From Stegostoma tigrinum (taxonomy: Eukaryota): 64,000 bases of DNA. Location of the stretch: positions 39,781,989 through 39,845,988 of the forward strand of contig NC_081373.1 of the NCBI RefSeq assembly GCF_030684315.1, written 5' to 3'. Within the stretch, counting starts at the first letter, position 1. Each line of letters opens with the position of its first letter. The translations under genes were made by a program, and so were the position numbers. Shown here piece by piece: positions 1,014-49,729 of the stretch. The notes under the pieces are model-generated. The model saw only the letters and a list, made by a program, of their open reading frames with translations, ran no database searches and was not told the origin of the DNA.

Positions 1014-3125
1014 ATTTGTGTCAATCAGCAAATATAGATGTATTTCAGCCTCAACTGTTCAGTTCTAAACACCAGACTTTAGGAAGGATATGAAGGCATT
1101 AGATAGTTTGGCAAATTGGCAGATGGAGGAAAGGTAAAAAATGCAGGATATATAGTGAGTGAAACTCTGTCTCGAGGCATGAGGTGGAATATGTAGGCAG
1201 TGACAGAGTGACAATATCTAATTTCTATTTCATGTGGTGAATGAAAGGAGTGATGGTCTATTTTGCAGTCCCAAGAATTGCATCCAGAAAGTATGAATAT
1301 ATATTCCTTGTCAAAAACTACAGCTGGTCTTGGTGTTCTATACAAACATACAATGAATACATACCATCTTGAAAATTCTCCTGTGCTGGAACTGACCACT
1401 CGTATAAGTCAACATCCCTTTAATGTAGGAACAGTGTTGCTCCTTGAACCCTGACCTAAGCTCTATTCTGTTACTCAATATTTGCAATTATTGGCAGTCA
1501 ACTAGCTGGGTCACATGCGTGGGCAGTGACGATTTGGAAGAATTTCATGACCTAAAAAAGTATTGCTATAATAGTTATGGCAGTGAGAGCAAGCCTGGAT
1601 GCTTCCTGGGGATGCTTTTAAGATATGCCATCCCCAACAGTGATTTGCAGATGCTGTGGGAAATGTGTGTTCTAAATGTAAGTCCCAGTGCATTTAACAC
1701 ACAAATGCCTTTATTTTTCTGATAAGTACTGCTGCTCTTTTCTTCACATTGGGATATGATACCGGAGAGCCTCACAGAGTAAACATTTGCCAAGTGTGCT
1801 CCTATCTATGAGTAATAAAGTCCAAGGTTCTAACTTGATTTCAGATGGTCCTGGTGATTGTAGATCATGGCATCGGCATGAGTATTTATTTTGTTCATTT
1901 TATGCTGTATCACTGGTACTTACGTTTACAGTGTGAAAACCTCAGCCCAGTCTACACCATTGCCAAATTCATGGCACCTGTTTTGAGGCAAGCATCTAAA
2001 ATAGGTGATTGCTTGAAAATGAAATCTGGAGCTTTAAACTCTGTAAATAATCACTTTCTCAAACTGACTACCACAAAAGCAGGGCAGGTAACTGTCATGG
2101 CACAATTTGAATTCTCCAGTGGATGGCAGCCAAAATTAAGTTTCTTGATATGGTTTATCTTGAAAGACAGTCCCAAAAACTGGGAATGTCAGGAGTGCAG
2201 AAGGATGTATTGGACTAACAACTCATTGTCTAGTATAAAGGTAATTGCATTTGTGGAAGGGACATGGACTTCATGATCTTTCATATTATTAAACAGCTAA
2301 TAAAGAAACTATTTGATTTTTAAAAGTACACCTTTAGCAGAGCATTGACTTCAAGTGCTTGTGTGTTCAATTTTCATTTGTCCCGTTAGATAGCATCTGT
2401 ACGTTGATGGAATAATACCTGTTCCTGTTTCTGTAACTTCTGTGGTTCAAAGCTACATGGAGAGTCACATGTGTAAACTAAAGATATCCCAACTTCAAAC
2501 TTTTGGCAGTTATGAAAAACTGTTGTTCGTTACTGTTCAGTGAATTCTAGATGTTTTCTGGCAGCAGTTACAATGAACTTCGATATTTGCTAACCAACTT
2601 TCTCAGAGATGTTATGATACCTGGAAAAAATGGGACTTGATGCCAAGCCTCCCAGTTTTAGAGGTGGGGACACAATCATTGCACAACAAAAACCCATTGT
2701 GTTGGCTATTGTGTGTTTAAACAGAGTGCTGCACTGTGGACTGCACTTTAGTTGAGTTCAGATATATCCCCTGATATGTACTGAAAAAAAAATCCTGATA
2801 CGTAAGGTGTAGTAACTTTGCTATCAGGTTAGCAGCTTTAATTGTTAATTGTGTCTGCAAGTGTGTGCCAACAGCAGCTTCCCTGCTTAACTTGCACCTT
2901 CTTGGGCACTGGGCTGTGGGGAGCTTGTGACAGCTGACCTAGGGGCAGTGTACTTTCTAGCTGGCACGATGTGATGAAACTGTTTTCTATTTGTCCTTTT
3001 GTGATGGTTTCTGCACCTATTGTCACCTTCTCCCTCTCTTCCAGTACTCAACAGAGGTGAGTTAACACTAACTGCTTCTTGCACACTAAGGATGTCCAAA
3101 CCAAGCAATCAGTAATTGACTGCAA

Positions 3126-3346
3126 GATAATAAAATGTGAGGCTGGATGAACACAGCAGGCCAAGCAGCATCTCAGGAGCACAAAAGCTGATGTTTCGGG
3201 CCTGGACCCTTCCAGGCCCGAAGGGTCCAGGCCCGAAACGTCAGCTTTTGTGCTCCTGAGATGCTGCTTGGCCTGCTGTGTTCATCCAGCCTCACATTTT
3301 ATTATCTTGGAATTCTCCAGCATCTGCAGTTCCCATTATCTCTGAT
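3126..3346. mobile_element. Palindromic non-autonomous derivative of the Neptune-like PLE 3' end
   Basis: ~85-bp near-perfect inverted arms, nearly identical to 62631-62718; extra ~38-bp tail on the right arm; exact 15-bp TSD AGTAATTGACTGCAA at 3111-3125 and 3347-3361. Confidence 0.9.
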
Positions 3347-4010
3347 AGTAATTGACTGCAACTTAATTGTGTACAGTTTTACCTGCTCTATTGAATAAGC
3401 TATTGCAAGGGGTGGCAGCTCTGAAAATCATGGAACAAGTGTCACTCTCCTGAACTAAGCAGTGTCTCTTTTGAGTTTCATGCAGAAAAGGCTTGTCCAA
3501 GGAGAAGGAGAATGCCCTAGAATTAAGAGAAAAAGAACTGCAGTAGTTTCAAGGTATGCACTTCACATTATTGGCAGTGTCATAAATTAAGCTTCTGGCA
3601 CATACAAATTCCTTGTTCTTCAGCGATATAACAGAGGGGAAATTTGCCAGACCTTCCATTCTAAAATCATGGGGAGCCTGTCCCAGTGAAATGTGGTCCA
3701 AGTATGTATTGCTTGTTGCTTCTTTGGCTCAGATATCAGGAGCAAATGATAGCTGCTGAAAAATGATCTGTTGCCAAATAAAAAATAAGCAGATGAGAAT
3801 AAAATGCTTTTTGCTGCATCATAGCTTTAAACTTTTAAACCAAGTTTTGAAGTCAGAGCACAGAAAAATTGAGTGACGCATAAAACAGATCACTGACTCA
3901 AACCTACTGGCTGGGTAAGCTAATAATCAGACCCTTAGGTTAGAGCCTTGATGAACCTAATGTTAATCTACTATCAGTAGTAGCTCACTAAAAATGAAGT
4001 GGGTTACCAC

Positions 4011-4221
4011 CGTAGTGATTATAATTAAGTCAACCAAGTGGACCTCCTAGAATGTGAGTTCTCTGATTATGGATGTTAACCTGGTCAAATCAGGGAGCCG
4101 TGGTCTACAGATAAGAACAGGCATGACAGAGGTTCTGGGAGCTGGTTCTGAGGAAGCTGGATCCACGTGTAAATAAAGTGTGACTTATTGACAGGATACT
4201 GGCCTCTGTTGAATTATTTCA
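4011..4221 (+). mobile_element. Solo LTR of the Gypsy family found at 42528-47052
   Basis: Colinear similarity to both provirus LTRs (cagggagcc, gaagctggatc, gtgtaaataaag, tggcctct..tttca); flanks ACCAC/AGCAC form a 5-bp TSD with 1 mismatch. Confidence 0.8.
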
Positions 4222-4261: not shown

Positions 4262-4427
4262 AGATGACAAGGTGTAGACCCTGATGAACGCTTTTTCTAA
4301 AGAAGGATCTAGGCCCAAAACGTCAGCTTTCCTGCTCCTCTGATGCTGCTTGGTCTGCTTTGTTCATCCAGCTCTACATCTTGTTACCTCAGATTCTTCA
4401 GCATTGGCAGTTCCTACTATATCAGAG
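4262..4427 (+). mobile_element. Older PLE-end mini-element with a short inverted 5' arm
   Basis: Decayed hammerhead region (ctaaagaaggatctaggcccaaaacgtcagc) plus body and tail; ~30-bp inverted arm at left; TSD GT(T/G)AATAAATG at 4251-4261 and 4428-4438. Confidence 0.75.
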
Positions 4428-13519: not shown

Positions 13520-16500
13520 TGACTAACAAATCACACACTATACCAAAGAATAGATTGTTGTTGTCACATCTAAAAGTGATAAAATGTCTGTAACAGTTAG
13601 AATAGTGACAGCCGAAGGAGAGTGATCAACAGATGTGGAAACAATGCAGTGATGTGTTGGATTCATGGACTGTTTAGCAAAGTTCTTGTCTGATATGCCA
13701 TCAGAGTGTGACCCTCCATGCAAGTACCTTGTTTAGTACGTACTGTTAAGGAACAGAACAAGAAGCATCTATCACTAGAATCAGACAAGGAGTGATGACA
13801 AAACAGTGCCAAGGTACTACAGTGTCAATGATGAAGTCACATTGCAGCTTGATGCTAGTGACTTGGAGCAATGTTTATGCAGCATGGACAACTAGTTGTA
13901 TTCACATCCAGGGCATAGGATTGGATTGGGAAATACAACACCGTACATCATCTCCGCACATCCCAGTCATATGGAGAGGCACAGCAGCACCAAAATTGCT
14001 GAAGAGCTCATAAAGATGTTGACTAAGTCCAATACTAACTAGTGTAAGGCACTCTTTGAATGGAGAAACACATGGAAAGTAATCTAATCAAATTTAATGT
14101 CATGACACATCTAAGTTACTTCTCCAATCATGAAGAATCAATTGAAGCCAGAAGTCATATTCGATTTGAGAGATAAAATCAAATGACAGAAAGCCAATTT
14201 CACATCGATAAACTTCTGTTTCATTGCCAGACCTGAATATTGGAGAGCCAGTCAGACTGGGAGCAATTGTGCCATGGTAAGGGCACTATAGACATGTGGA
14301 GACTGTTTAAGGAACAGTTGTTGCAAGTGATGAGTAAATATGTCCCTCTGAGACAGGCAAGAAGGGGTAAGATAAAGGAACCTTGGATGACGAGAGCGGT
14401 GGAGCTACTCGTGAAAAGGAAGAAGGTAGCTTACATAAGGTGGAGGAAGCTAGGGTCAAGCTCAGCTAGAGAGGATCACATGCAGGCAAGGAAGGAGCTC
14501 AAAAATGGTCTGAGGAGAGCCAGGAGGGGGCACGAGAAAGGCTTGGCAGAACGAATTAGGGAAAACACAAAGGCATTTTACACTTATGTGAGGAATAAGA
14601 GAATGGTCAAAGAAAGAGTAGGGCTGATCAGGGATAGCATAGGGAACTTGTGTGTGGAGTCTGAGGAGGTAAGGGAAGCCCTAAATGAGTTTTTTGCTTC
14701 TGTCTTTACGAAAGAAATGAACTTTATAGTGAATGAAACCTTTGAAGAGCAGGTGTGCATGCTGGAATGGATAGAGATAGAGGAAGCTGATGTGCTGAAA
14801 AGTTTGTCAAACATTAAGATTGACAAGTCGCCAGGCCCGGACCAGATTTGTCCTTGGCTGCTTTGGGAAGCGAGAAATGCAATTGCTTTGCCACTTGCGA
14901 GGATCTTTGCATTCTCGCTCTCCACTGGAGTCGTACCTGAGAACTGGAGAGAGGCAAATGTAATTCTTCTCTTCAAGAAAGGAAATAGGGAAATCCCCGG
15001 CAATTACAGACCAGTAAGTCTCACGTCTGTCATCTGCAAGGTGTTAGAAAGGATTCTGAGGGATAGGATTTATGACCATCTGGAAGAGCATGGCTTGATT
15101 AAATGCAGTCAACACGGCTTTGTGAGGGGTAGGTCATGCCTCACAAACCTAATCGAGTTCTTTGAGGATGTGACTAGAAAAGTTGATGAGGGTCGAGCTG
15201 TGGATGTGGTGTATATGGACTTCAGTAAGGCATTTGATAAGGTTCCCCATGGTAGGCTCATTCAGAAGGTCAGGAGGAATGGGATACAGGGGAACTTAGC
15301 TGTCTGGATACAGAATTGGCTGGCCAACAGAAGACAGCGAGTGGTAGTAGAAGGAAAATATTCTGCCTGGAAGTCAGTGGTGAGTGGGGTTCCAGAGGGC
15401 TCTGGGCCTCTACTGTTTGTAATTTTTATTAATGACTTGGATGAGGGACTTGAAGGATGGGTCAGCAAGTTTGCAGATGACACAAAGGTTGGAGGTGTCA
15501 TTGACAGTATAGAGGGCTGTTGTAGGCTGCAGCGGGTCATTGACAAGATGCAGAGATGGGCTGAGAGGTGGCAGATGGAGTTCAACCTGGATAAATGCGA
15601 GGTGATGCATTTTGGAAGGTTGAATTTGAAAGCTGAGGCCAGGATTAAGGATAGGATTCTTGGCAGTGTGGAGGAACAGAGGGATCTTGGTGTGCAGATA
15701 CATAGATCCCTTAAAATGGCCACCTAAGTGGACAGGGTTGTTAAGAAAGCATATGGTGTTTTGGCTTTCATTAACAGGGGGATTGAGTTTAAGAGTCGTG
15801 AGATCTTGTTGCAACTCTATAAAACTTTGGTTAGACCGCACTTGGAATACTGTGTCCAGTTCTGGTTGCCCTATTATAGAAAAGGTGTGGATGCTTTGGA
15901 GAGGGTTCAGAGGAGGTTTACCAGGATGCTGGATGGACTGGAGGGCTTATCTTATGAAGAGAGGTTGACTGAGCTTGGACTTTTTTCATTGGAGAAAAGG
16001 AGGAGGAGAGGGGACCTAATTGAGGTATACAAGATAATGAGAGGCATAGATAGAGTTGATAGCCAGAGACTATTTCCCAGGGCAGAAATGGCTAACATGA
16101 GGGGTCATAGTTTTAAGCTGGTTGGAGGAAAGTATAGAGGGGATGTCAGAGGCGGGTTCTTTACACAGAGAGTTGTGAGAGCATGGAATGCGTTGCCAGC
16201 AGCAGTTGTGGAAGCAAGGTCATTGGGGTCATTTAAGAGACTGCTGGACATGTATATGGTCACAGAAATTTGAGGGTGCATACATGAGGATCAATGGTCG
16301 GCACAACATCGTGGGCTGAAGGGCCTGTTCTGTGCTGTACTGTTCTATGTTCTATGTTCTAATGCAGATGTTCAAAGGACTCAACAAATGTCAGTCCATG
16401 TGAAAACTTGTGGAGCAATTGTGAATGACCAGCTATATTACCAGAAATGCAGACATATGTACATCTAGAGAAGCTGTTCTTTCACGGCAGGTAGCTGATC

Positions 16501-20683: not shown

Positions 20684-21350
20684 GTTAGTCAAAATAGTCT
20701 GTAAACATAATAGGAAAGCAGGAAATATTTTCCCTACTGTTTTCCCAATGAATAACATTGAAAATTCAATGAGGAAACCCCGTGTGCCAGAAACCTTTAA
20801 GTGAAATGCCTGGTAAGATTAGATCGCTTTTTGAGAATTGTTATTAATCAAGGCCAATTATCTCAAACTGCAGTAACCTAAAAGGCTTTTCACTTTCTGA
20901 AGTGCTTTAGATCTTCTCTCTTTGCCAAATGTTTAATGTAGCATTATCCAGTACAGATCTGTTGCAGTTTGCAAGCCTGCAAATTGTGCTTTGTGACATT
21001 ACAGTGTGATCTGAAGGACAATGTGCAAATTAATTAAACCGTTTATTTTAATAGAGAAGTAACAGGCCTTGAAATCTGATCAGCTAGTCAATATACCTTC
21101 CAACGTGCTTTCTAATTGAGTTGGCATGGTGTTAGGATATGGCTGAATTGTTTACCTGTGAAGCCCCTTTAAATCTCTTTTGCTAGACCGACATGTGCAA
21201 GACCTTGTGGAAAACTTGGGGTTTTGGCATGGCTGCATATTTTAAAGAAAGCTTTGGAGCTCATTGTTCATCTCCAAGCCTGAATGATGAGACTCGTAGC
21301 AAAGCTTACATTAGAGCCTGGCCTTTTGTTATTGTTAAGCTGGTGAAATC

Positions 21351-21766
21351 GATTAATACTTATGCAAATAATGGGTCAGTGTATTGCAGCTTCCTCCATA
21401 TGACTGGTTTTCCTAGAGATGACTGAAACAAGCTGTGTTTAGGAAAACCAAGTCTGCATTGCGCAAGGGAGCCCTTAAAGAGTAGATTGGAAGATCAGGC
21501 CATGGCAATATTGGCCCTTGGTATTGCCCTGGCTGTAGCAGTGCTGGATAGGTAGTACTAGCAGTAATCAGGACACTTAAATTGAAGGCCGGCCATGACC
21601 CATCTGTATTGAGCATGAGTTCAGGTTGAGCATCCTGTTTAAGGCTTCCCTTGCGCAATGCAGACTTGGCTTTCCTAAGCGCAGCTTGTGTCAGCCACCT
21701 CTAGGAAAAGCAATCTTACAGAAGAAGCTGCAACGCACTGACCCATTATTTGCATAAGTATTAATC
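21351..21766. repeat. Long inverted repeat (129-bp arms, ~158-bp spacer); MITE-like or conserved hairpin
   Basis: Arms 21351-21479 and 21638-21766 align ungapped with ~16 mismatches; outer 31 bp perfect; ATGCAAAT in each outer end. Confidence 0.9.
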
Positions 21767-22104
21767 AGTTTCAGTCCTGGAAACGTCCCTGAAGATGTTT
21801 CATTTGGCCCATAAAGATGTGGCGAATGATGTAATTCTGACTTGCAAAAAAGAAATCACTTGCTGCTTCTCAGGTTGAAGGCTTTAGGACATTGTTTAGC
21901 ACTTGAAGAATAAATGTTGCGTTGTCAAGTTTCTAACCCAAACTATTTGAAATAAATGGAATAAAACCTGAATTTAAATAGCAGGCAAAGTCATCTCATG
22001 CAAGTTTGTTAGGAATTCGGAGTAAGTTTTTTAAACAAGTCATTTGAAGAGATATTTGACACCAAATTGCAGAATAATTTTTAGATCACTTACACGTGGA
22101 CTTT

Positions 22105-25990: not shown

Positions 25991-26805
25991 ATATCTTCTC
26001 AGTTCAATTTTAGTTGGCCCTGAAATCTGACTTTAAACTTTATTAACTTTCATTATCTCTTGTAGTAATTTTTTTTTATCATATTGTGAATTTCATCCAA
26101 ATCGAAGTGTCTTCTAAACATAATTTTGCTGAAGTAGGTTCATTGCTCTCATGAGGAAGTATGCTGCCTGATGAATAAAGGCTCAGAAATTCACCTCGGA
26201 TGCTTGTGCAAAAGGATTAATTTGAGATAGATTGTCTGTTACAAGCTGCCTAATATTTAGTTACAATAATATCAGGAAATCTAAGGGAATCTTGCCACTG
26301 CAGGCATGCTGATAACCCCCAACATAAACCACCCCCCTGCCATGAAAGAAAAAGAAGACTAGTGTCCCACAGTATCCCTGTCCCAAGCAAAGCTCTTCTG
26401 CACTAAACATCAGTGGCTTTCTCTCACATGAAAATTGTTGTAATCTTCTTTTTGCACATCTCCAATCTTATTTGTTAACAACTTTTATTAAAATAAAGAT
26501 TAAAAAAAATTATTCTCTGGAGACACTCACCTTTTCATGTATGTTGAAATTTCTAAGTTAGAAAGAAGCCTACCTTGAAAATATTTGTGAGATTTTGTAG
26601 AGTATGTCCATCACACATAACTGTTGTCTATTTGTTCGAGTACTAGTCGACTATTGCCTCTGATGACATCTTCCTCAAACTTTTTTCCAAACCCTTTCAG
26701 CAGCCACATGCAATCATTCCAACCCAGGAGGTCTCTTTCAGTCGGATAGGAACAGAACAGGGAATTTGTTAGTCTTTGTAATTATAAAATGAAATGATAA
26801 CTTCA

Positions 26806-27822
26806 TCATCAGTGAGCCTCCGACAAAGCGCTGGTGTTATGTCCCACTTTCTATTTATCTGGTTAGGTTTCGTTGGGTTGGTGATGTCATTTCCTGCATT
26901 GGTGATGTCATTTTCTGTTCTTTTTCTCAGGGGATGGTAGATTGGCTCCAAATCAATGTGTTTGTTGATGGAATTCCGGTTGGAATGCCATGCTTCTAGG
27001 AATTCTCGTGCATGTCTCTGTTTGGCTTGTCCTAGGATGGATGTGTTGTCCCAATCAAAGTGGTGTCCTTCCTTATCTGTATGTAAGGATACGAGTGATA
27101 GTGGGTCATGTCGTTTTGTGACTAGTTGATGTTCATGTATCCTGGTGGCTAGCTTTCTGCCAGTTTGTCCAATGTAGTGTTTGTCACAGTTCTTGCAAGG
27201 TATTTTGTAGATGACGTTCGTTTTATTTTTTGTCTGTATAGGGTCTTTTAAATTCATCAGCTGATGAATTTAAAAGACCCTATACAGACAACAAATAAAA
27301 CAAACGTCATCTACAAAATACCGTGCAAGAACTGTGACAAACACTACATTGGACAAACTGGCAGAAAGCTAGCCACCAGGATACATGAACATCAACTAGT
27401 CACAAAACGACATGACCCACTATCACTCGTATTCTTACATACAGATGAGGAAGGACACCACTTTGATTGGGACAACACATCCATCCTAGGACAAGCCAAA
27501 CAGAGACATGCACGAGAATTCCTAGAAGCATGGCATTCCAACCGGAACTCCATCAACAAACACATTGATTTGGAGCCAATCTACCATCCCCTGAGAAAAA
27601 GAACAGGAAATGACATCACCAACACAGAAAATGACATCACCAACCCAAGGAAACCTAACCAGATAAATAGAAAGCGGGACATAACACCAGCGCATCGTCA
27701 GAGGCTTACTGATGATGTTACCTAGAATGTTGATGAAATGTCTGAAAACTAACCTTCCAGCTCAGCGAGCAAACTCACATCCAGAACCTCAACCTGAGCT
27801 ACAAATCTTCTCAAAACTCGCT
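26806..27822. mobile_element. Poseidon/Penelope-clade PLE 3' fragment as a spacer-less head-to-head palindrome (GIY-YIG endonuclease region)
   Basis: Mirror ORFs 26769-27257(-) and 27264-27725(+) with NVIYKIPCKNCDKHYIGQTGR; 455-bp arms meet at ..catcag|ctgatg.. (27260/27261); 12-bp TSD ATGATAACTTCA at 26794-26805 and 27823-27834. Confidence 0.93.
27709..27742 (+). ncRNA. Degenerate minimal type I hammerhead ribozyme motif (Poseidon-like PLE)
   Basis: CTGATGA-t-GTTACC-tagaat-GTTGAT-GAAA-TGTC; paralogues at 36825-36858(+) and 35023-35056(-) restore GGTGAC-GAAA-CGTC. Confidence 0.6.
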
Positions 27823-29763: not shown

Positions 29764-30909
29764 TATTGACTGTCGCTGTCCGAGTCAACAGTCAACCCCA
29801 TGAATGTGAATTTAGAAGGTACAGAGTACTCCTTCACAATTCACTCTTATTCTCAAAGGTATCAAGTATATAAATATCAAATATGAAAAGTATCCAAATA
29901 TCAAAATATTCCCAAATACAAATTGTAAACAGTTAAGAGAAACTACGCTAGTCATCCTTCAGCTAACTTATTACCGCACTTGAATCAAAACACATTTACC
30001 CAGAAATGCTCAGCTAGCCAGGTTGCACAATTCTTCACCTCCACCTCCACTTTCACCTGCACCTCCACCTCCACCTGCACATTCACCTGCTCCTCTACCT
30101 CCACCTGCTCCTCCAAATCCGCCTGCACCTGCACCTCTACCTGCTCCTCCACCTCCACCTGCACCTGCACCTCCGCCTCCACCTGCTCCTCCGCCTGCAC
30201 CTCCACCTCAGCCTGCACCTGCAGCTCCACCTGCACCTCCACCTCCACCTCCACCTGCACCTCCACCTGCACCTGCATCTCCACTTCCACCTGCACCTCC
30301 ACCTGCACCTCCACCTGCTCCTGCACCTCCACCTGCTCCTGCACCTCCACTTCCACCTGCACCTCCACCTGCTCATGCACCTCCACTTCCACCTGCACCT
30401 CCACCTGCACCTGCACCTCCACATCCACCTCCATCTGCACCTTGACCTGCACCTCCACCTCCACCTGCACCTCCACTTCACCTGCACCTCCACTTCCGTC
30501 TGCACCTGCACCTCCACCTGCACCTCCACATCCATCTGCACCTGCACCTCCACTTCCACCTGCGCCTCCACCTTCACCTCCACTTCCACCTCCACATCCA
30601 CATCCACCTCCACCTCCACCTCCACTTCCACCTGCACCTAAGGGGTTGCTTATGTGTTGTTATACTAAAGAGTTTAGATGAAACTGGTCTTTATCCCTGA
30701 TCCCTGTTTGATTTCATCCAACCAGAAATCTCCACATTGTGTTGCAAAGTGCTCACCCTCCAAACAGGTACCAGAACTGCTTCCTTTTTTCCTAGATTGG
30801 TCCAGGTAACAGCTATTATGTACATGACTGTTAACTTGTTCACTCATTCAGCTTGAGCAACTCACAGTCTCTCCATTTGAGCCTCAACCCTGGTCACGCC
30901 TGGCCAACA
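29764..30909. mobile_element. Unclassified insertion, possibly a solo LTR, containing a hexamer array
   Basis: Interrupts the CR1 ORF; ends t(a)ttgac.. / ..ccaaca resemble TGTTG..CAACA termini; TSD ambiguous. Confidence 0.4.
30036..30638. repeat. Compound hexamer tandem array (CCACCT/GCACCT variants), ~100 units
   Basis: Direct reading; produces the spurious poly-Pro, Cys/Thr/Ser and Val/Glu/Gln ORFs. Confidence 0.95.
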
Positions 30910-31501: not shown

Positions 31502-34500
31502 AGAGTCATGGAGTCATACAGCATGGGAACAACCAGTTGATCCAACAACCCATGCCAACCATAATCTCTAACTACGCTAGTCCCACCTGTCTGCGTTTGA
31601 CCCACATCCCTCCAATCCCTTCCTATTCGTGTACTTATCCAAATGTCTTTTAGACATTGTAACTGTACCTGCATTTATCATTTCCTTAGGAAGTTCATTC
31701 CACACGTCAACCACTCTGTGTTAAAAAAAAAGCCTCTCATGTGAGCCTAAACATCAACTTTCTGCTCCTCTGATGCTGCCTTGCCTGCTGTGATCCTCCA
31801 GCTCCACGCTGTGTTGCCTCTCATGTCTTTTTAAAATCCTTCTCCTCTCAACTTAAATATATGCCCCTTCATCCTGAATTCCCCCAACGTATGCGTTTAT
31901 GCATGATCATCTGTGTGTGATTTAAATGGCAGAAAATAAAAGTATAAAAGGGAAAAGACGCCTGCCATTCAGCTCATCTATACCCTTCATTATTCTATAA
32001 ACCTCTATAAGATCACTTCTCAATGTCTTACACTCCAGTGAAAAACGTCCCAACTTGTCCAGCCTCTCCTTATAACTGAACCTTTCCATTCCCAGCAACA
32101 TCCTGGTAAGTCTGTTCTGAACCCTCTTCAACTTCATAATATCCATTCTATAACAGATGGCCCAAAAGTGGACATGGCACTCCAGAATATGCCTCACCAG
32201 CATCCTGTACGACTTCAACATAGCGTTCCAACTTCTCCATTCAAAGATCTGAGTAATGAAAGCAAGCATGCTAAATGCCTTCTTAACCACCTAATCTATT
32301 TGTGATGCAAGCTCCAAAGAGTTGTGTACCTGAACCTCTAGGTCTCTCTGTTCTGCAATGCTGCCCAAGGCCCTACTTTTAACTGTATAAGCCTTATCTT
32401 TGTTTTACCAAAATGTAATACCTTGCATTTATCCAACTTAAATTCCATGTGCTACTTTTTAGCCCATTGGCCCAATTGATCAAGATGTCTTTGTGATCTT
32501 AGATAACCTCCTCCACCACTATACCACCAATCTTGGTGTTATCTGCAAACTTAATAACAATACTTTCTGTATTGTCATCTAAATCATTTATATAAATTAC
32601 CAGCAAAAGTAAACCCAGTACAGAAACCTGTGGAACACTGCTGGTCACAGGTCTCCAGTCTGAAAACCAGCCCTCCACCATCATTTCTCAGTTTCCTGTC
32701 ATTAAGCCAATTTTGTATCCAATTGGCAAGGTCACCCTGAATCCCATTTTATCTAAGTTTACTAATTAGTCTACCATGTGAAACCTTGTCAAAGGCTTTA
32801 CCAAAGTCCCAAGTAAACAATGTTTATCACTCTGCCCTCATCAATCTTCTTGGTAACTTCCTCAAAAAAACTCAATCAAGTTTGTGAGACACAATTGCCC
32901 TTGCACAAAACCATGCTGACTATCCCTTATTGTTCCTTGCCTGTCCAAATGCATAAAACTCCTATCTTTCAGAATCATTTCCAACAACTTACCTACCACT
33001 GAGGTCAGACTTCTAGGTCTGTAGTTCCTAGGCTTCTCCTTACATCCCTTCTTAAACAAAGGAACAGCATTAGCCACTCTCCAGTCATCCAGCACCTTAC
33101 CCGTAGTAATAGATGATACAAATATTTCCACAAGAGGCCCCACAATTTCCTTCCTAACCTCCCACAAGGTTCTGGGATACACTAGATAAGGTCCTGGCAG
33201 TTGATCCATCTTCATGTATTTTAAGACCTCAACATTTCCTCTTCTTCAATGTAAACTATTTTTGAAATGTCAATGTTTATTTCCCTGAGTTCGCTAGCCC
33301 TTATTTCTTCCTCCACAGTAAAAACTGTTGCAACATATTAAGTTAATATCTCTCCCATCTCCTGAGTTTCAACACAAAAATGACCTTTTTGTCTTTTAAG
33401 AGGCCCTACTCTCTTTCTAGTTGCTCTCTTGTTTTAAAAGTACTTGTAGAATCTCTTTGGATTACCCTTGACCTACCAACCTTACCTTTTACTGTAACAG
33501 GAACATGATAACTCTCATTATTGCTCTTCTGAAACCTTCTCACTTACCTGACGTCATTTTACCTGTCAACAGTCCACTTCAATCAATTTTTGAAAGTTCT
33601 TGTCACATACTATTAAAATTGGCCTTGCTATAATTAAAAACTTTAACTTTTATGTATGGCTTATCCATTTCCATAACTACTTTAAAACCAATAGAATTAG
33701 GATCACCGGTCCCAAAGTGTTCCTGACAATCACTTCAGTCACGCTTCCTGTCTTATTACTGGAGAGAAGGTCAAGTTTTGCCCCTTCTCTAGTAGGAACA
33801 TTTACATATTGATAAAGAAATTTTCTTGAACACAGTTTGCAAATTCTTCACCATCCAAGCCTTTAACACAATGGTACTCCCAACCTTATTATGTTTACAT
33901 ATATCTCAGATGTCCAGACATATTTGCTTCTCAATTTCCCTCTGACTGTTGAGGGGCCTTTAGTACAGTCCCATTAAGGTGCTTATTCCCTTTTTATATC
34001 TAATTTCAACCCATATATTTTCACTGGATGAGTTTTCAGAAGTATCTTCTGTAATCTTTTGCTTCTTTTTCTATCTTTCCTATAGCATCAGAAACCTGGC
34101 ACATTGAGCTACCAGTCCTGTTCATCTCTCAGCCAAATTTCTGTAATAACTAGAATGTCTCAATCCCATTTTCCCAGACATGGTCTGAGTTCATCAACCT
34201 CACCTGTGAGACCCCTTACACTGAAATAGATGCAGTTTCATTCTTCAGAGTTACTTCGCTCTCTGACATACCTGAGTCCGTCTTTTCTAATTAACTTGTT
34301 CTTTTCAGATTCAAAACCATTCTTATCAATCTTTCTGTTTACTCTCCCATTTAAGATCTCTTCACCCCTACTCTCTAAAAGTTTACAGTCTGTCTTCATA
34401 GAATTAGCAAATTTTCTTGCAAGGATATCAGTCCCTTTCCAATACAGATGAAACTCATCCCTTTTGAACAGGTCTTTACTGCCCCAGAAGAGATCCCAGT

Positions 34501-34700: not shown

Positions 34701-34982
34701 TCAAGACAGCTAGATATGCAAGAGCAGAGATGTACTGCTGAGGCCATATAAGGCTCGAGTCAGACCATGTTTGGAATATTGTGAATAGCTTTGGGCCTTG
34801 TATCTAAGGAAGGATGAGCTGGCATTGTTGGGTTCCAGAGGAAGCTTGGAGGAATGATCCCATGAATGAAGGGCTTGTCATATGAGAAGCGAATGAGAAC
34901 TTTGAGGCTTTACTTGATGGAGTTCAGCATAACGGGGGGGAATGTCACTGAAACTTACAGAATACTCAGAGGCCTGGATAGA

Positions 34983-36935
34983 GATTCTTGACATGCTCGT
35001 CAAGCTGGCTTGTTTTCATTCGGACGTTTCGTCACCATGCTAGTTAACGTCGTCGCTGTGGCCTCTGATGAAGCAATGTTGTTCTACTGCACTTCATATT
35101 TATATGATCAGGCCTGTTAAGTGAGCTTGTGTCATTTCTGGTGTTTTTTGCAAGTGTTTGTATATGGGGTCTAATTCCACATGTGCATTGATTGCATGAT
35201 GGATGGAGTACCAGGCCCTTAGGAATTCCCATGTGTTGGTCACGTCGTCCCAGTTAAATTGATCACCTTCATTGTCCAAGTGCATGAAATGAGGGAAAGT
35301 TTGTTGTGTCGCTTTGCTGCTAGCTAGTGTTTGTGTACCCTGATGGCAAGTTTCCTTTCTGTCTGACCGATGTAATGTTTTTGGCAGACCTTGCACAGTA
35401 TTCTGTACACTCTGTTGGTCCTGCATGGCATGGGTATGAGTCTTTGGTCCTTGTGAGTGTTTGTCATAGAGTGGCTGTGGGCTTGTGTGCTACAGTCATT
35501 CCTCATGGTTATAGGAGTCTTATTGTCAGTTCCGATACGTTCTTGACTTTCGGTATTGTGTCCTGTTGGTGTTGTCTATCTGGTAGGCACGTGTGGATGA
35601 AGTTGGTGGGGTATCTGTTGATAGTCAAGACCTTGTAAAAGTGTTCTTTCTCCTTCTTGAGAAGTTTGGGTTTCTGACAGTGGATGTGGCCAGTTTGAAT
35701 GGTGTCTTTACACCGCTTTGCTATGGAAATTGAGGATTTGGTCAGTGTGGGTTGTCTTCCTGTATGCTGTGGTTTGGAGTTCCCTGTTCACCATTCGTTC
35801 TGACCTGAGATCAAGGAATGGAAGTTGATTGTTGTTTTCCTCTTCTGTTGTAAGTTTCATCCGGGTGAAGGCGTTGTTGATGAGGTGTTGTGTCTCTTCT
35901 AACTTAGTGCACTTAATGATGATAGATGTGTCGTCCTCGTATTGGATCTACCGTTTGACTGTATGTGGGGGAGGGTCATGCGCTCCAATCTCTGTATGAC
36001 TGCCTCTGTAATATGTACTGGGATGGGTGACCCCGTTGGTGTGCTATTGATTTGTTTGTATGCTTGACTGTTAAAGGTGAAGTGTGTGGTGAAGGACAGG
36101 CCCAGTAGTCTGAGTATGTTGTTCTTGCTGATAGAGCCATCATTCCTGTTTCCTCTAGTCAGTGTTTCTATGGCTAGTGGGATGTCAACAGATGTGAATA
36201 GTACTGTGGATTGAAAGGATACCATAATCTCATCGTTGTTGATTTTGATGTTCTGAGGTTATTAAGAACTCCTGGGTTGAGTGGATGGATCGGCTGATCC
36301 GTTGACCGTGTGTTTCAGTCTTTATTGTAGGTCCTTGGCCAGTTTGTGTGAAGATGTGCCCAGTAAGGAGACAGTGGGTCTGAAGAGTTGTCTGGTTTGT
36401 GTACTTTGGGAAGCCCAGAGAAGCAGGGTGGGGGCGTGGGGTGGGGTGGGGTGTGGTGTTTGAGCCTTCTGATTCCATTTTCATGTCGTTTATCTTGGTT
36501 ATTTGTCATGCAGCTTTTTTAGTCTCTTCAGTGTTTGGGTGATTCTATGTTGGTAAGTGTTTGTATATGCAAGCAGTGCCTGCGATTTTTCAATGAAGGC
36601 CATCAATTTAACTGGGACAACATGACCATCCTAGCTCAAGCCAACCATAGACATGCACAGGAATTCCTGGAGGCCTGGTTCTCCACCCATAATAAACATG
36701 TGGAATTAGACCACATATCCAAATCCTTGCAAAAAAGAACTGGAAATGACAGAAAACACCTCAACAGACCGGATCATATAAATACTAAGAGGAGTAGAAC
36801 AACATCGCTTCATTGGAAGCCCCACTGATGATGTTATCTAGCATGGTGACAAAATGTCTGAACTCTAATCAGCCATCTCAGCGAGCAAGTTAACAACCTC
36901 ATCCATAATCCGAGTGAAAATCTTCACGAGAAATT
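34983..36935 (-). mobile_element. Old Poseidon-like PLE (RT plus GIY-YIG, minus strand) with inverted 3' copy at ~36591-36935
   Basis: Frameshifted motifs FSGLPKVHKP, MVSF..LFTS..TTHFTFN..YKQIN.TP.GSPI, VYRILCKVCQKHYIGQT; + arm HQFNWDNMTILAQANHRHAQEFLEAW; probable TSD 34970-34980 / 36940-36950. Confidence 0.85.
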
Positions 36936-38419: not shown

Positions 38420-39990
38420 ATTGCTAGGACACCTGGCAGGGTGGCTAATGTTGTACCACCGTTTAAGAAAGGTAGCAAAGACAAGCCAAGGAATGACAGG
38501 CCAGTGAGCCTGACATCAGGATCAACCAACATTCGGATCGTTAAGATTTGATTAGGGATAGTCAGCACGGATTTGTGCGCAGGAAGTCATGTCTGACAAA
38601 CCTTTCAGTGTTTTTCAGAGAGGTAACCAAGAGGGTAGATGAGGGTAGGACAGTGGATATTGTCGCTATGGACTTTAGTAAGGCCTTTAACAAGGTCCCA
38701 CATAGTAGGCTAGTCATGTAGGTTAGGTTGCATGGGATCCAGGGAGAGGTAGCTAATTGGATTCAAAATTGGCTCAATGGTAGGAAGCAGAGGATGATAG
38801 TTAAAGGTTGTTTCTCAGACTCATGACCTGTGACTAGTGGTTTGCCACAGGATCAGTGCTGGGGCCTTTGTTATTTACATAAATGATGTGGATGTGAGTG
38901 AACAAAGCATGATTAGTAAGCTTGCAGATGATACAAAATTAGGGGGTATCATCGAATACGAGGAAGGTTATCAAAAATTACAGAGGGATCTTGATCAGAT
39001 AGGGAAGTGGGCTGAGGATTGGCAAATGCAATTCAATACAGAAAAGTGTGAGGTGTTGCACTTTGGAAAGTCAAACAAAGGTAGGACTTATATAGGTCCT
39101 GAGGTGTGTTGTGGAACAAAGGGACCTAGGAGTACAAGTATATAGTTCATTGAAAGCGGCATCACAGGTGGACAGGATAGTGAAGATGACATTTAGCATG
39201 TTGGCCTTCATCTGTCAAGGCTTGGGTATAGGAGTTGGGACATTATGTCATAGTTGTATAAGTCATTGGTGAGGCTGCAATTGGAGCATTGTGTACAGTT
39301 TTGATCACCCCATTAAAGGAAAGGCATTGTTAAGCTAGAAAGTGTGCAAAGAAGATTCACGAGGATAACACAGTATGGAGCTGGAAAAACACAGCAGGCC
39401 AGGCAGCATCAGAAGAGAAGGGAAGTCCTCCTCCTCTGATACTGCCTAGCCTGCTGTGTTCTTCCAACTCCATATTGTGTTATCTCTAACTCCGGTGTCT
39501 GCAGTTCTTGCTGTTGCAAATTTACAAGGAAGTTGACAGGTTTAGTAAGCCTGAGTTATTGGGAGAGGTTGGCCAGGACAGGACTTTATTCCTTTGAAGG
39601 TAGGAGAATGCGGGGTGTCCTAGTTGATGTGTATAAAATCATGAGGAGCTTAGATGGGATGAATGCATGTGGTCTTCTTCCCAGGGATGGAGAATTGAAA
39701 ACTAGAGGGCATAGGTTTAAAGTGAGAGGGTAAAGATTTAAGAAGGATCAGAGGGGCGACTTCTGCACACAGAGAGTAGTGTGTAAATGGAATGGGCTGC
39801 CAGAAAACGTGTTTGAAGCAGGTTCAGTAGCAACATTTAAAAAACATTTGGATAGGTACATTGATGGGAGGGGTTTGGAGGGATATGGTCCAAATGTGGA
39901 AATTGGAACTAGCTGAGTGGACACAATGGTCACCATGGACCTGTAAGGGCTGAAGGGCCTGTTTCCATGCTGTATTACTCTATGATTCAA
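38420..39990 (+). mobile_element. CR1 LINE fragment (RT to 3' end)
   Basis: ISKLADDTKLGG..LQRDLDQIGKWAEDWQMQFNTEKCEVLHFG; tail ctgtattactctatgattc. Confidence 0.88.
39364..39517. mobile_element. Palindromic PLE-end mini-element inserted in CR1
   Basis: Inverted arms gataacacagt..gcagcatcag / ctgatactgc..gtgttatc plus a right-hand tail; degenerate TSD agattcacgagga / aaatttacaagga. Confidence 0.8.
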
Positions 39991-41710: not shown

Positions 41711-44700
41711 ATTTCCAGAGATGCCTTTCTTGACATCAAGAGCAACTAGTTGTATGTTTCAATTGAGATCATATGCCATGCACCGTGCATCCATGGATGC
41801 TGGCATTAAACATGTGTCAACTTTTCCATACGTATAGTACAGTCCTGTGCTGCCATGCTGCACTTTGAAGTACACTGGTACCCAGCAATGAAGGGGCTTT
41901 TTGCACACAAGGACAGTCACTCAGCTCACAGACCAAAACAGGCTGCATAACAGGGCCGCTTGTTTGCTCATCCTCATAGCATTCACTCTCCTTGCACCTA
42001 CTTGGAAGACCTCGATGTCACAGCCTTATCTTGCCTTGCCTTTTAACATAGACTGAAATCTATAGTTGTTAGCCATCACCAGACAACGGTTGGGCATGAT
42101 GCTGCACATCACCATCATAACTCCATGTGGCTGACGTGGCTGACACTCTGCACATTCTTCAACCAAATGGCTATGTCGCAGAATCAGAGCAGCATAGTGC
42201 TAAGGTCCCTTAATGGAGTCTTCCTTCAGCCAGGGGGTCCCAGCACAGTAAGGGTAGCTTTCAATATCAGCCCAGTAGGTTAGGCATGGTCAGGTGGCTG
42301 AATGGGGAAGACAAGGTCAGGACCCTTCTTGCAAAAGGCCAGGAGCTAAATGTCAGGCATCCCACCATCTGCTTTGGCTGTTGTTGCCCTCTCATGGGCA
42401 ATTTCCTCTTTCAGTGTGAAAGGGAGAGATTGAGTGTGATGAAACTGGATGGAACAGCTGTTAGTGAAGTTGGGAGGACTTGGTGTGGTATTCTGAGTAA
42501 ATAGAGGAGCAGAGGGGATGGAAGGAGTGTAGTTATTGTAATGAGGTCAGCAAGGTGCATCACATAGCGTAGGAGTTCTCTGATTGGGGATGCTAATCAA
42601 GTCCAATCAGGGAGGCCTGGCTGACAGAAAAGGAAAGGACTGTCAGGCATCCTGACCACTGTGAGAGCTGGCTTTCTGGGAGCTGGATCAGTGTCAGGGA
42701 CACTCCGTGTGTAAATAGAGCGTGGCTTGGTGACAGGATTCTGGCCTCTATGAAGTCATTTCAGTGGCAATGAAAGAAGAGCACACTCCTGAAGTAATTC
42801 TCTCAAAACTTTTGAGTCTTTGAGTTGAGGTAATCATTTCTGGCATAATGCTATTATTTGGGAAGCTTGACTTGTTCAATCTTGCCGTCATAGACTGGGC
42901 CCAATATGTGGAAAGAATTTTTTTTTCCAGGAAAGTAACACGGGGGCAGATGAAAAGCAATGAGTAATTCCCCTGACAGTTTGTGGTCCTGCAGCTTTTT
43001 TGCTTATTGGGAGCCTGACTTTCCCTGCGGCACCAGATACTAAAACCTTTCAAGAGCTGACAGATTTAGACAAGGAATATTACAATACCAAGCCTCCCCT
43101 AACTCTGTGACACTGTCAGTTTTACTTGGCATTTTGAGAGCTGGGGAATTCATATCGGGATTTCTGACTTGGTTAAGATGACTGGCAGTGGCATATGACT
43201 TTGGTCTAACCCTTAATGAGAGACTGTTTAGTATATAGGATTAATGACATAACAATGCAAAAGTGCCTACTAGTTGTAGCCCAGTTGGACTTCAGACAGG
43301 CAGGACAACTGGCTTTACCATTGGAAAATGCAGCAAGTGGAGCATATGAGTTGCAGGGTATGCCAAGGGAAGTGCACACCCTCGCAGGGCTGACAGAGCT
43401 TGGGAAAGCCTACCTGAGTGAAGGCAATTGCATAGCCTCACTCAAGACATATCCTGAACAGTGCATCTCGAGGTCAGCCCACAGCAAAACCCCAAAACAT
43501 GGCCAAGCACCAGCCAAATGGTTAAAATTTTCTTTGGGATCCAGGCCACCAAGCCATTGCAGTTCCTGCCAGTAAGCGGACTTGAAACAGCAAAAGGGTT
43601 CCACTGGACCTAAATTGAATAAAAGACCTCACAGACTGGTATCCAGGAGAGTGCACACCATGGAAAGCCCATCTAACATCTGGTTTGGAGCTGTTAAATT
43701 GCTTAGCAACATCCAGATTAGAATCAATCAAAACAAGTGCCTATTTAAATGGTTCCAATGGAGGACAATACCAGTGCGGTCGTTTCAGTGATTGTGGAAC
43801 CAGTCTTTAATAAAATCACTCTGGACTCCAACCCTTAGGTTTGAACAAGATCTTGGCCAGATTGAGAATCAATCCCAGGCAGCCTTTATAGATTAAGGGA
43901 ACATCTTCAGTTCCAGCCTGTTCTGAGAAGTAGCTGGTTCAGTTGTCACTGATTACAGTAAAAAGCTTGGGCCGAAGCTTGATGGGGTGAAATTGGTTGA
44001 GGAAGGTTCACCTAGGTTTGCTCAACATCTTTTCATTAGAAAATGCCTGCCTGAGTGAAGTCCCAGTTAACTACCCAGAAGTTTTTCAAAAGGTCAAGGG
44101 ACTGTCAAAAGTGCCAAGGCCACCTTGCATGTTGACCAGGAAGCAATTCCATGATTCCATAAGGCCTGCCCAGTGCTATTTGCCTTATGGACAAAAGTCG
44201 TGGCAAAAATCAGAAGGCTGGAAAGATATGGAATCATCAAACTGTCCAGTTTATGGAATGGACAACACCAGTCATTGTGAAGTTCAGTGAGTTGGTTCGC
44301 TTTTGTGGGGGACTTTAAACAAATGGTAAACCACTTTTTGCAGCTGGATAAGTAACCAATCCCTCACATAGAGGATTTATACACAAAGTTGGACATGAGC
44401 CATGCAGGTACTTACAATTACGGTTAGTTGAGGATTCCCAGAAGTATGCCACAATTAATACTCATTGGGGTTGGTATACCAGACTGCCATTTAGGGCATC
44501 ACAAGCCTATGCAATTTTTCAGCGAACGATGTAAAACATTTTACAAGGGCTCCCTCAGGTCACTGTATATCTAGATGATGTGCTAGTAACAAGGAAGACT
44601 GATAAAGAACACTTAAAGAACATAAATATAGTCCTTAGACATTTCTCCTAGGTGGCATACACCCTAGAAGGGAAAACTGTGTGATCCTGGCACCCCAGGT

Positions 44701-47225
44701 GAACTTATTGGGGTACAGAGGCAACAAGACTGGGTTATTCCCGTTGTAAGATAAAGTGAGTATAATCGAAGGTGTCCTGGCTCCCACATCATACTGGAGT
44801 TTAGGTCTTTCCTTGGGCTGATGAATTACTACGGAAAGTTCATACATAATCTGCCCTCCATCTTAACATCTTTGCATCAGCTCTCAAAAAAGCACCAGCC
44901 TTGGAAATGGTCGCACAGCCAAGCCATAGTTTTCAGGGAAATGAAGAAGCAACTATCTTCCTCTAAGGTGTTGGCACACACTGATCCCAAGCACAATCTG
45001 GTATTAACATGTGATGTCTCCCCACACAGCATCAGGTTAGTTTATCTCATAGGTGGCCTAATGGAGAGGAACACCCAAAAGCATATGACTTTGGCTAACG
45101 CAGAGCATAAATACGCCCAGATAATGAAGGAAGGTTTGGCATATTTGGGGGCAGAAAGTTCCACCAGTACTTTTAAGGACATAAATTTGCAATAATAACA
45201 GACCACAACCCCCTGCTGGGTCTACGTAAAGAGGATAAGGCAACACTGCCCACAGCTTCAGGTTGATATCACCGGTGGGCTCTAATACTAAGTGTGTATA
45301 ATTACAAGTTGCAATACTGTCTGGAAGGCCAAGTAGCAAATGTGAATGTATTCAGCTGCCTCCTGCTGGCAGATACACCACCAGTGGTACTGCCACTGGA
45401 AGAGATCATAACGGATTTAAATGATCTGGATACACTTCCAGTCACGGCTAGCGATATCAGACTTGGGATGCTGAAAGATCCGGTCCTGGCAAAACTGGTG
45501 GTGATGGGGGAAACCAAAAGGGCCATCACAACCAGAATTAATACCGTTTTTGGATCCAGAGAGACCAGATCATAGGAGAAGGCAGTATCTTATTATGGGG
45601 AGCAAGAGTGATTGTTCTGAGCAAAAGTCATCACCAGATACTGGCTGGACTCCACCAGGGTCATCGACGGGTTCTCCAAAATGAAGATATTGGGGAGAAG
45701 TTACGTCTGGTGGCCAGCATAGGTGGGGCAGTGCCCAGCGTGCCAACAAGGAGAAAAATTACTGCCAGCAGTGCATTCACATTTGTGGGAATTCCCATGT
45801 AAACACAGGAGTCAGTTACACACCCACTCTGCAGGCCCTTTCATGGACTCAGTGTTCTTAGTCATTGTGGACACCCACTCAGAGCAGGTGGAAGTGTGTA
45901 GAATTCAATTGTCAAACTCAGGAGTTATAATAGAAAAGCTGCGTGCACCTTTTGTAATACACGGACTTACAGATGTGTTGGTCACAGATAATGGGCCTTC
46001 GTTTACCAGCCGGGAATTTGAGTATTTCCTAAAGTCAAATGGTATTTGACATATAAGGCCAGCTCCATACCATCCACCATGCAATGGTCTGGCAGAAAGA
46101 GCGGTCCAAACTTTGAAGGCAGCGTGAAAGGAATAGCCCACAGATTCATTCAATACCAAACTGTTCTGCTTCCTGTTTGATAATAAGGTCGCCCCTCTTG
46201 CAACAACAGGGAAAGCTCCAGCAGAGTTGCTAACGGGGCGAAGACTTTGCACCAGGTTAATCTGATCTTCCTGGACCTTGGACAGGGGGAAGGTGAAAAG
46301 GCATCAGGAACACCAGTGCCAGGTACAAGGCTCTGCTAAGCGACAGAGACAGTTTACTACAGGAGACAAAGTTTGGTGTAGGAACCACAGGAATGATCCT
46401 GCATGGGTCAAAGATACCGTAGACACAAGGTCAGGTCCAGTGACATACACAGTTTGGGCAGTTGTGACAGCCCTGAACAAGTATGTGGACCATATGAAAG
46501 CTTCAAACTCACCAACTGTGTGGGAGCAAAACGTGCCCTGCTGTTCGACAGCCATTCCGAAGCTGTGGGTTCTCTCCCTTCGCCAAGCGTTGATGATACT
46601 TTGGAATCTGAGATGGCAACGGCAGATGCACCGCCTAGATGCCTATGCCGCCTGAAGAAGAAACTGCATTTCTTCTGAGATGCTCCGGATACAAGAGGCA
46701 AGCTACTGTGTGTTACGTGCTGCCTGCATCAGAAGCAGAGTTGGCGGAACCTGATCCAGTGCTAAAACGCCCCTGGAGGAGTTACAATAAAAAGAACTGA
46801 CTCAGAGGAGGAGGGATGTAGTGGTTGCAATGAGGTCAACCACGTAGACCTCATAGAGTATGAGTTCCCTGAGTGGGGCTGTTATTCTAGTTCAGTCAGG
46901 GAGCCCTGGCTGAATGATAAGAACATCACTGTCAGACATCCTGTTTACTCTGACAATTCCCTCTGAGGAAGCTGGATCAGGGTCAAGCACTTTCCACGTG
47001 TAAATAAAGGGTGACTTGGTGGTGCGATATTGGCCTCTGTGGTGTTAGTTCAGGGAGGAGGGGGTGAAAGAGATAGTGAGAGAGAGTGGTATATGCAGTA
47101 GTGAGAATGATATCGAATGAGCCTTGGCGGGAGCTGGGTGCGGCAGCCGAGATAGAGTTAGCGTGAGGCAGCAGAGAGAAGACTGCAGAAAAGAAATGGT
47201 CATTGACCGTTTTTCAGCACTGTTG
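41710..47225. mobile_element. Harbinger-derived remnant interrupted by the Gypsy provirus
   Basis: Minus strand at ~47180-47225 reads QQC*KTVNDH (Myb/SANT C-terminal QCRKKVNDL-like); purine-rich sequence continues across the LTR boundaries. Confidence 0.35.
42528..47052 (+). mobile_element. Full-length decayed Ty3/Gypsy LTR retrotransposon
   Basis: LTRs 42528-42763 and 46817-47052 (TG..CA); PBS-like gtggcaatg at 42764; PPT agaggaggaggga 46804-46816; RT YLDD at 44568-44579; RNase H (LVLTCDVSP); integrase (GPF..FLVIVD, VTDNGPSFTS); TSD AGGAG/GGGAG; many stops and frameshifts. Confidence 0.92.
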
Positions 47226-49011: not shown

Positions 49012-49186
49012 AGAGATAGTAAGAACTGCAGATGCTGGAGTCAGAGACAAAAAAAAATGTAGAGCTGGAGGAATACAGCAGGCCAGGGCCCAAGGAAGGG
49101 TCCTGACCTGAAACATCAGCTTTCCCTTTCCTCTGATGCTGCCTGGCCTGCTGTGTTCATCCAGCTGCACACTTTGTTATCTCTGA
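49012..49186. mobile_element. Palindromic PLE-end mini-element (tail on left arm)
   Basis: Left arm is antisense tail plus body; right arm starts in hammerhead stem II (gaagggtcctgacctgaaacatcagc) and ends ttatctctga; TSD TCCTCTT(C/T)AG at 49004-49013 and 49187-49196. Confidence 0.82.
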
Positions 49187-49729
49187 TCCTCTTTAGCTGC
49201 TTCACCAATGATCTTCCTTCTATCATAAGGTCAAAAATGAGAATGATCAGTAACAATTGCACAATTTTCCATGCCGTTTGTAACTCCTCAGAGACTGAAA
49301 CCGTCTGTAAAAATAGGTAGTGAAACCAGTTGTCTTTTCTGCACTGTTACTGTCTCTGCCTCATTGTTTTCTCCCAAACAGTGAAAAGGACCTGTATTTT
49401 GTAATATTTTGAGGTAGATTTAGCCAAAGATACCATACGTACAATCATATGGATAAGGAAAGATTTATCCAGCAACTGAAAAGTTCAAGGAGTGCAGAAA
49501 TAAACACATCCGTCTGGACTGATTGAGAGCTGCTTGCTTATGACCATCAGATCGGTACAAAAAGTCCACAGCTAGCTAATTTATCCTGGAACATACTTGA
49601 ATTAGATTCTGTCTCACCCTTCTTGCTTGATTGGGCATAATTCTGTCATATTCTCTTGAATGCCCCAGTCAGTTCCTGATTCTTATGGAATCACTATCAA
49701 TCTTTTACGTCAAGCTTATTCTCTCCTTA

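Follow-up and report, generated by a model that had tools for sequence, protein, structure and literature searches.

Penelope-like elements (PLEs) that carry an endonuclease (EN+ PLEs) leave insertion units with an inverted 5′-truncated copy and a tail of 30–40 bp on one side (PMC8557442, excerpt); three sources available as excerpts treat this arrangement as the norm for EN+ PLEs (PMC8557442; PMC3846280; PMC8969392). Target-site duplications (TSDs) of 8–10 bp are given for Pen2a_Av and Pen2 of Adineta vaga (PMC3846280, excerpt). In Schistosoma, minimal-hammerhead pairs lying 100–700 bp apart on opposite strands have been ascribed to truncated PLEs (PMC4209133, excerpt). The protein of a lizard PLE, PAc of Anolis carolinensis, cuts and extends both target strands in vitro, starts at two internal positions flanking the tail, has no requirement for hammerhead cleavage and is a predicted dimer; the element belongs to Poseidon, not to Neptune, and its start site showed no strand difference (PMC11167929). 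Retrozymes, in turn, are built of tandem units, each with a complete type I hammerhead, and are expressed as monomeric RNA in linear and circular form (PMC7229834; bioRxiv 2026.07.22.740005; both as excerpts).

The short hairpin insertions, or stubs, described here are the smallest form of the published PLE insertion layout and are ordinary as a class. With EN+ PLE units they share head-to-head arms, a tail on one arm, TSDs of variable length, microhomology at the junctions and a hammerhead in the terminal repeat; they differ in having arms of only 28–130 nt, no coding sequence between the arms and very high numbers. In the open-access literature, supplements aside, we found no account of minimal PLE hairpins in sharks or of arms from two templates. 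All coordinates below are positions in the window, the 64,000-nt stretch of Stegostoma tigrinum that was analysed (NC_081373.1:39,781,989-39,845,988, forward strand).

The 3111 stub occupies 3126–3346 (221 bp) and is bounded by an exact direct repeat of 15 bp (3111–3125 and 3347–3361, both on the plus strand). It opens with a tail-less arm (3125–3212, minus strand), an antisense copy of 88 nt of the PLE 3′ end (62631–62718), followed by a 7-nt spacer (3213–3219, plus strand), a tailed arm with the same 88 nt in sense orientation that begins at hammerhead position G8 (3220–3307, plus strand), and a 39-nt PLE tail found on this arm only (3308–3346, plus strand), which matches 59929–59898 of a large PLE in the same window. 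The last 3 bases of the left TSD also match the start of the tail, a microhomology between target and template. The two arms (3125–3212 and 3220–3307) differ at 1 base in 88, and the predicted fold has an energy of −187.5 kcal/mol (z −27), which none of 200 shuffles equalled. The spacer sits in a 12-nt re-copy of the right arm (3211–3222 = 3226–3237), of which 10 nt were confirmed computationally and the full 12 nt by reading the sequence; the re-copy extends 2 nt into the left arm and 3 nt into the right. As the sequence-only reading had proposed, the hairpin is made of the end of the PLE at 59898–62718: its right arm is identical to 62631–62718 at 87 of 88 positions, and arm plus tail match the inverted arm of the large PLE at 115 of 121.

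A contig from organism B runs directly from 3110 to 3347 and contains the 15-mer once, and both flank-element junctions are present in contigs from two samples of organism A. The insertion is therefore real and lineage-specific, with the 15-bp TSD first read from the letters alone, and it is recent. Many contigs depart from the reference at 3311 and at 3345–3347, around the tail. The two arms also share a minority base, about 85–89% of contig depth having the other letter at 3228/3204; together with the single arm difference, this fits one template or self-copying equally well. A further 655–779 loose contig ends at 3220 were considered as proof that truncation is favoured at the edge of the hammerhead, a reading that was dropped because the reference ends there and long flank contigs had been selected to end nearby.

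The parent element (59898–62718) has the same architecture on a larger scale. Its sense, tail-less arm (61075–62718, plus strand) is 5′-truncated inside the reverse transcriptase (RT) and holds the RT end at 61080–61220, a frameshift, and then an open frame at 61220–62401 whose 393 aa comprise the thumb, a CX4CXXC linker and a GIY-YIG domain; three 39-nt tandem units at 62270–62386 encode a Pro/Ser-rich tail after this domain. A 60-nt spacer (61015–61074, plus strand) re-copies 61158–61217 (58/60), so that in both the large PLE and the 3111 stub the spacer is re-copied from just downstream in the sense arm. The inverted, tailed arm (59898–61015, minus strand) covers 61638–62718 plus the tail, is 92% identical to the sense arm, and has one stop and one frameshift in the GIY-YIG/linker frame. 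No TSD was found around the large PLE (P=0.7 against 1500 random boundary pairs), which may therefore represent two insertions, or one insertion in which an arm was overwritten by gene conversion.

The Pfam GIY-YIG match of the large PLE (E=0.001, 19.7 bits) lies below the 22.6 cut-off. Searching longer proteins yielded 94 relatives; RVT_1 is present in most of them, and the full-length homologs (29–53% identity, again mostly with RVT_1) align over 61080–62260; the EN+ PLE trait of RT followed by a C-terminal GIY-YIG in one ORF is thus seen through the homologs, the window copy being 5′-truncated. A CX2-5CXXC motif between RT and GIY-YIG, given for Neptune and Nematis (PMC8557442, excerpt), lies at residue 216 of P0001 and is present in 87 of the 94. 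By this linker motif, the parent is assigned as a putative Neptune-type PLE. Its terminal repeat contains a predicted minimal type I hammerhead, with an intact core at 62626–62653 (plus strand) and predicted cleavage after 62653. The core has an extra base after A9, a 4-bp stem II, G10.1-C11.1 and a palindromic 15.2–16.2 at the stem III position, which are minimal-hammerhead traits listed in PMC4209133 (excerpt). A second copy of the core, with one change, lies at 60022 on the minus strand, and Rfam gave no match at gathering score anywhere in the window.

Four other short copies in the window are 68–81% identical to the reference arm. The stub at 4262–4423 (plus strand) is older and two-armed, with a tail-less arm of 28 nt (4262–4289) and a tailed arm (4291–4420) that extends to about element position 62620. 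The copy at 31743–31819 (plus strand) is a single tail-less arm equivalent to 62644–62718, bounded by an exact 11-bp TSD, part of which lies within the end of the arm. An old two-armed stub at 39364–39512 (plus strand) bears a partial tail on its right arm, both arms stopping near 62655–62664, and a LINE-like repeat lies on its right flank. At 49012–49186 (minus strand), the tailed arm (49015–49085) has the shorter core, reaching 62680, and the longer arm (49095–49182), reaching 62631, has no tail. The family was described at first sight as palindromic, which holds for 3111, 4262, 39364 and 49012 but not for the single arm at 31743. Divergence ranges from 1–2 differences in 88 at 3111 to 14–17 at 4262 and 49012, in agreement with the long activity that had been suggested.

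Each of the four copies had also been credited with its own TSD of 10–13 bp. The copies exist; measured against 1500 random boundary pairs, the TSDs are 14/16 at 4262 (8 exact, P=0.007), 11/11 at 31743 (P=0.007) and 9/10 at 49012 (7 exact, P=0.04), and the 9/11 match at 39364 (P=0.17) is not above chance. TSDs clearly above chance are thus seen in three of the five short copies only. Empty sites for 39364 and 31743 were sought among paralogous repeats in the window, which bridge neither site. The surroundings of the stubs contain other retroelement remains. A LINE fragment at 14237–16273 has a 496-aa open frame (RVT_1, E=1.9e-30), and decayed pieces related to it flank the 31743 and 39364 stubs. 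An LTR retroelement remnant at 42523–47053 comprises direct repeats of 242 nt (73%) spaced 4289 apart, between which RNase H-like and integrase matches lie; a related solo repeat (4012–4221) directly adjoins the 4262 stub. At several tail-less ends the target matches the element for a few bases (3123–3125, 31816–31821 and 49183–49191), as if the primer paired briefly with the template.

All arms follow the PLE end collinearly, and no two of the five short copies are alike in layout. In element coordinates, the arms start at 62631 and 62631 (3111), 62691 and about 62620 (4262), 62644 (31743), about 62664 for both arms (39364; about 62655 for the left arm in another alignment), and 62680 and 62631 (49012), with 61638 and 61075 in the large PLE. 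All five two-armed insertions (four short, one of 2.8 kb) show the EN+ PLE trait of an inverted 5′-truncated copy with a tail of 30–40 bp at one end; in each, the tail is on exactly one arm and the tail-less arm begins at the tail boundary. Four of the nine short arms, in three inserts, stop within 62620–62631, the upstream edge of the hammerhead. Five of the nine extend 5′ of the predicted cleavage site, so the templates of those arms were not cut there.

These observations suggest that the five short copies are most likely one-off leftovers of normal PLE integration, made afresh each time. For the 3111 stub, we consider it probable that the element arose in a single event, as an inert by-product of integration by the Neptune-type PLE and was not copied from a hairpin master. 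Under the mechanism that we propose, the GIY-YIG endonuclease would cut the two target strands 7–16 bp apart, giving the TSD, and each target 3′ end would prime cDNA synthesis on PLE RNA. One cDNA would begin at the distal end of the 39-nt tail and the other where the tail starts, each on a template of its own. Synthesis of both would end prematurely, in many cases at or slightly beyond the hammerhead's upstream edge, perhaps by run-off from the 5′ end of a transcript or by stalling at stem II. One cDNA would then slip back and re-copy a few bases, and the two would be joined on 1–3 nt of microhomology. Such two-ended priming would yield a TSD, head-to-head arms, a one-sided tail, varied junctions and arms of 28 nt to 1.6 kb. 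The PAc system resembles this scheme in its two start sites bounding the tail, in the cutting and extension of both strands and in its independence of the hammerhead; it differs in belonging to another clade, and the main text of the report describes neither how two cDNAs might be joined to form a hairpin nor arms from two templates (PMC11167929).

The main competing account is that one cDNA folds back and primes its own second strand, resolution of the intermediate then removing the tail from one end. For head-to-head inversions of PLEs whose junctions are palindromic, self-priming has been put forward (PMC3846280, excerpt), and the tail has been ascribed to resolution by the endonuclease (PMC8557442, excerpt). 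The 3111 stub is compatible with such an origin, both arms stopping at 62631 with a single difference and a shared minority base, although only 2 nt would have been available for priming there. The 49012 stub and the large PLE are left unexplained. In these two of the five two-armed insertions each arm holds sequence that the other lacks, because the shorter arm carries the tail, and a simple self-copy cannot give such arms.

The divergence between the arms of the large PLE also bears on the number of templates. Across 253 codons the arms show 57 differences, of which 27 are synonymous; a null matched for base and CpG context predicts 16.7 ± 3.3 (P=0.002), and this test supersedes a first one (P=1.5e-4) that ignored transition bias. 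With the Pro/Ser-rich end removed, 24 of 51 are synonymous (P=0.0035). In a control, the fold-back of a second PLE family at 26804–27717, the corresponding figures are 5 of 16 against 4.4 expected (P=0.47). The excess, absent from the control, suggests that these arms of the large PLE were diverging before insertion, in part under selection, which fold-back leaves unexplained. The arms look like two source lineages, in a comparison that draws on one locus, the large PLE, which has no TSD; nested insertion or gene conversion may be the source of their differences. Taken together, the synonymous excess and the tail on the shorter arm point to two templates. We regard fold-back as an unlikely origin of the stubs, albeit one that deserves attention, and two-ended priming and fold-back may both operate. 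Fold-back suits the perfect 457-bp palindrome at 26804–27717, where divergence is neutral.

The second PLE family is itself a head-to-head fold-back (26804–27820) with arms of 457 bp, 16 differences and no spacer. Within it lie a fragment of GIY-YIG and, at 27709, a hammerhead core; the left arm ends inside this core and the right arm continues for about 100 nt; no TSD was found at the boundaries tried. An older inverted pair related to this family lies at 34975–36905, with arms 71% alike and about 1.3 kb apart and a degenerate hammerhead-like stretch in each arm.

The copies in the window represent a small part of a very large population, as the sequence-only reading had anticipated. Contigs of four runs were aligned to 2900–3600 at 85% likeness, two of the runs (X1 and X2) coming from one study. 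Summed arm depth was 9.7e6 in X1, 2.6e7 in X2 and 4.0e6 in X5, against flank depths of 6.8, 19.5 and 15, so that arms, by summed contig depth, stand at 2.6e5 to 1.4e6 times the flank; this ratio does not give copy number. Allowing for a possible over-count of up to 31-fold by overlapping contigs, organism A would hold roughly 4e4 to 1e6 arms. The PLE end is hugely repeated in three organisms, including organism C, in which the repeat is present and the flanks are not covered. Scans for the arm motif gave no locus in viral contigs and none in prokaryote genomes; a single metagenome locus was rejected as a 21-base chance match in bacterial-looking coding DNA.

Such numbers would also be expected of a self-propagating non-autonomous class, as originally proposed, in which hairpin or solo-end units are transcribed, re-mobilised in trans and multiplied as families with fixed junctions. 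Precedents exist in the non-autonomous PLE MRC1 (PMC8557442, excerpt) and in the mobilisation in trans of pseudo-LTRs (pLTRs) alone (PMC3846280, excerpt), and the four arms in three inserts that stop within 62620–62631 would suit a common unit. The five window copies have no layout common to any two of them, however, and the coding PLE shows the same architecture as the stubs. The start of the tail-less arm at the tail boundary in all five two-armed insertions is what an own priming event for each would produce, and an 88-bp perfect RNA duplex would probably be a poor template.

The contigs contain at least 740 different arm-to-arm joints (four runs, with X1 and X2 under-counted), none of them dominant. 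The best 15 of the 740 all link a left arm to a right arm, and the 3111 junction is absent among them; depth in the 3111 spacer is at most 30–56 times the flank, against 1e6 times on the arms. Some joints do recur, which argues against one-off formation: among the best 15 of 740, 13 in X1 and 14 in X2 stand at 14–229 times flank depth, the highest at about 126–229 times in X1 and 116–154 in X2, and 4 of the 15 are also found in organism B. No layout is shared in the window, and some joints in public contigs recur. A few joints (region 3163–3274), 3172 to 3274 and 3181 to 3245 among them, reach 100–230 times the flank in both organism A runs. Of the 30 arm ends in the same best 15 of 740, all but two (28) fall at 62653 or 3′ of it, a distribution that hammerhead-cleaved templates would explain but that may also reflect alignment bias, as older subfamilies diverge from the reference there and near-centre joints may be scored as gaps. 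The recurrent joints could stem from hot spots of microhomology, from fold-back chimeras in the libraries or from small families that propagate; since X1 and X2 come from one study, such chimeras could supply part of the joint depth. On balance, a self-propagating class is a rather improbable account of the stubs.

A mixed history, in which integration proceeds from both cut strands with two RNA templates and some hairpin stubs then turn into masters for tens to hundreds of fixed-junction copies, is likewise rather improbable. If it were true, master stubs re-mobilised in trans without a working hammerhead would be a retrotransposed counterpart of MITEs.

The stubs had also been called hammerhead-derived and compared with retrozymes, in which a small or circular RNA processed by the hammerhead would be reverse-transcribed. 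Like the non-LTR retrozymes of animals, they are small, non-coding and drawn from a hammerhead-bearing PLE end. The parent end has a textbook minimal hammerhead, and the excerpt of one preprint derives animal retrozymes from PLE pLTRs and reports some in one chondrichthyan genome (bioRxiv 2026.07.22.740005). The term hammerhead-derived fits only in a loose sense: a scan for intact cores on both strands found none in the nine arms of the short copies. The 3111 arms start at 62631 and the core at 62626, and its first five bases are therefore missing; the 4262 stub spans the core in mutated form, and the remaining short arms start inside or beyond it. Moreover, the window copies are inverted pairs with broken cores and include no tandem units, whereas two or more tandem units with complete hammerheads mark a retrozyme, and the five arms that extend 5′ of the predicted cleavage site point the same way. 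The comparison with retrozymes thus fails, and a retrozyme origin is highly improbable. The stubs also resemble the truncated-PLE hammerheads of Schistosoma, sharing the same core type in the parent and the same short inverted pairs. Since most of them stop inside or 3′ of the core, a hammerhead search would miss them, unlike the pairs described there (PMC4209133, excerpt).

MITEs are likewise short, abundant and almost all inverted repeat (PMC8969392, excerpt), and the 3111 stub looks like one in having two long inverted repeats with almost no interior. Its arms, however, come from the 3′ end of an element encoding RT and GIY-YIG, and its ends are asymmetric, with the 39-nt tail at one of them. 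TSD length is fixed within a MITE family. Among the PLE stubs the TSDs are 15, about 16, 11 and 7–10 bp, with neither fixed 2–3-bp duplications nor transposase-type terminal inverted repeats, so retrotransposition by a PLE, as opposed to a DNA transposon, is upheld. A DNA-transposon MITE or an assembly artefact, the latter opposed by the junctions in two organism A samples and the empty site in organism B, can be set aside as extremely improbable. An unrelated imperfect palindrome of about 430 bp at 21344–21773, with 139-bp outer arms at 86% and no match to the PLE ends, could be a true MITE. An array of 6-nt units of about 730 bp (29967–30694) is open in several frames. Pfam searches of 78 further open frames of the window, hand-picked from 160 of at least 75 aa with one shorter RT piece added, gave retroelement domains only, in 3 frames, and no host exon.

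For annotation, these observations mean that PLE hairpin stubs can pass for MITEs. Where transcribed, the stubs would form RNA duplexes of about 90 bp. Three things from this locus deserve to be retained: the organism B empty site, the range of joints, including recurrent junctions that lack an explanation, and the sign of two templates. How PLEs integrate is as yet poorly resolved, and the value of the stubs is as data: with tens of thousands or more short, two-armed, TSD-flanked records in one genome, one could ask whether the arms have two templates, at which points cDNAs stop and whether hammerhead-cleaved RNA serves as a template at all.
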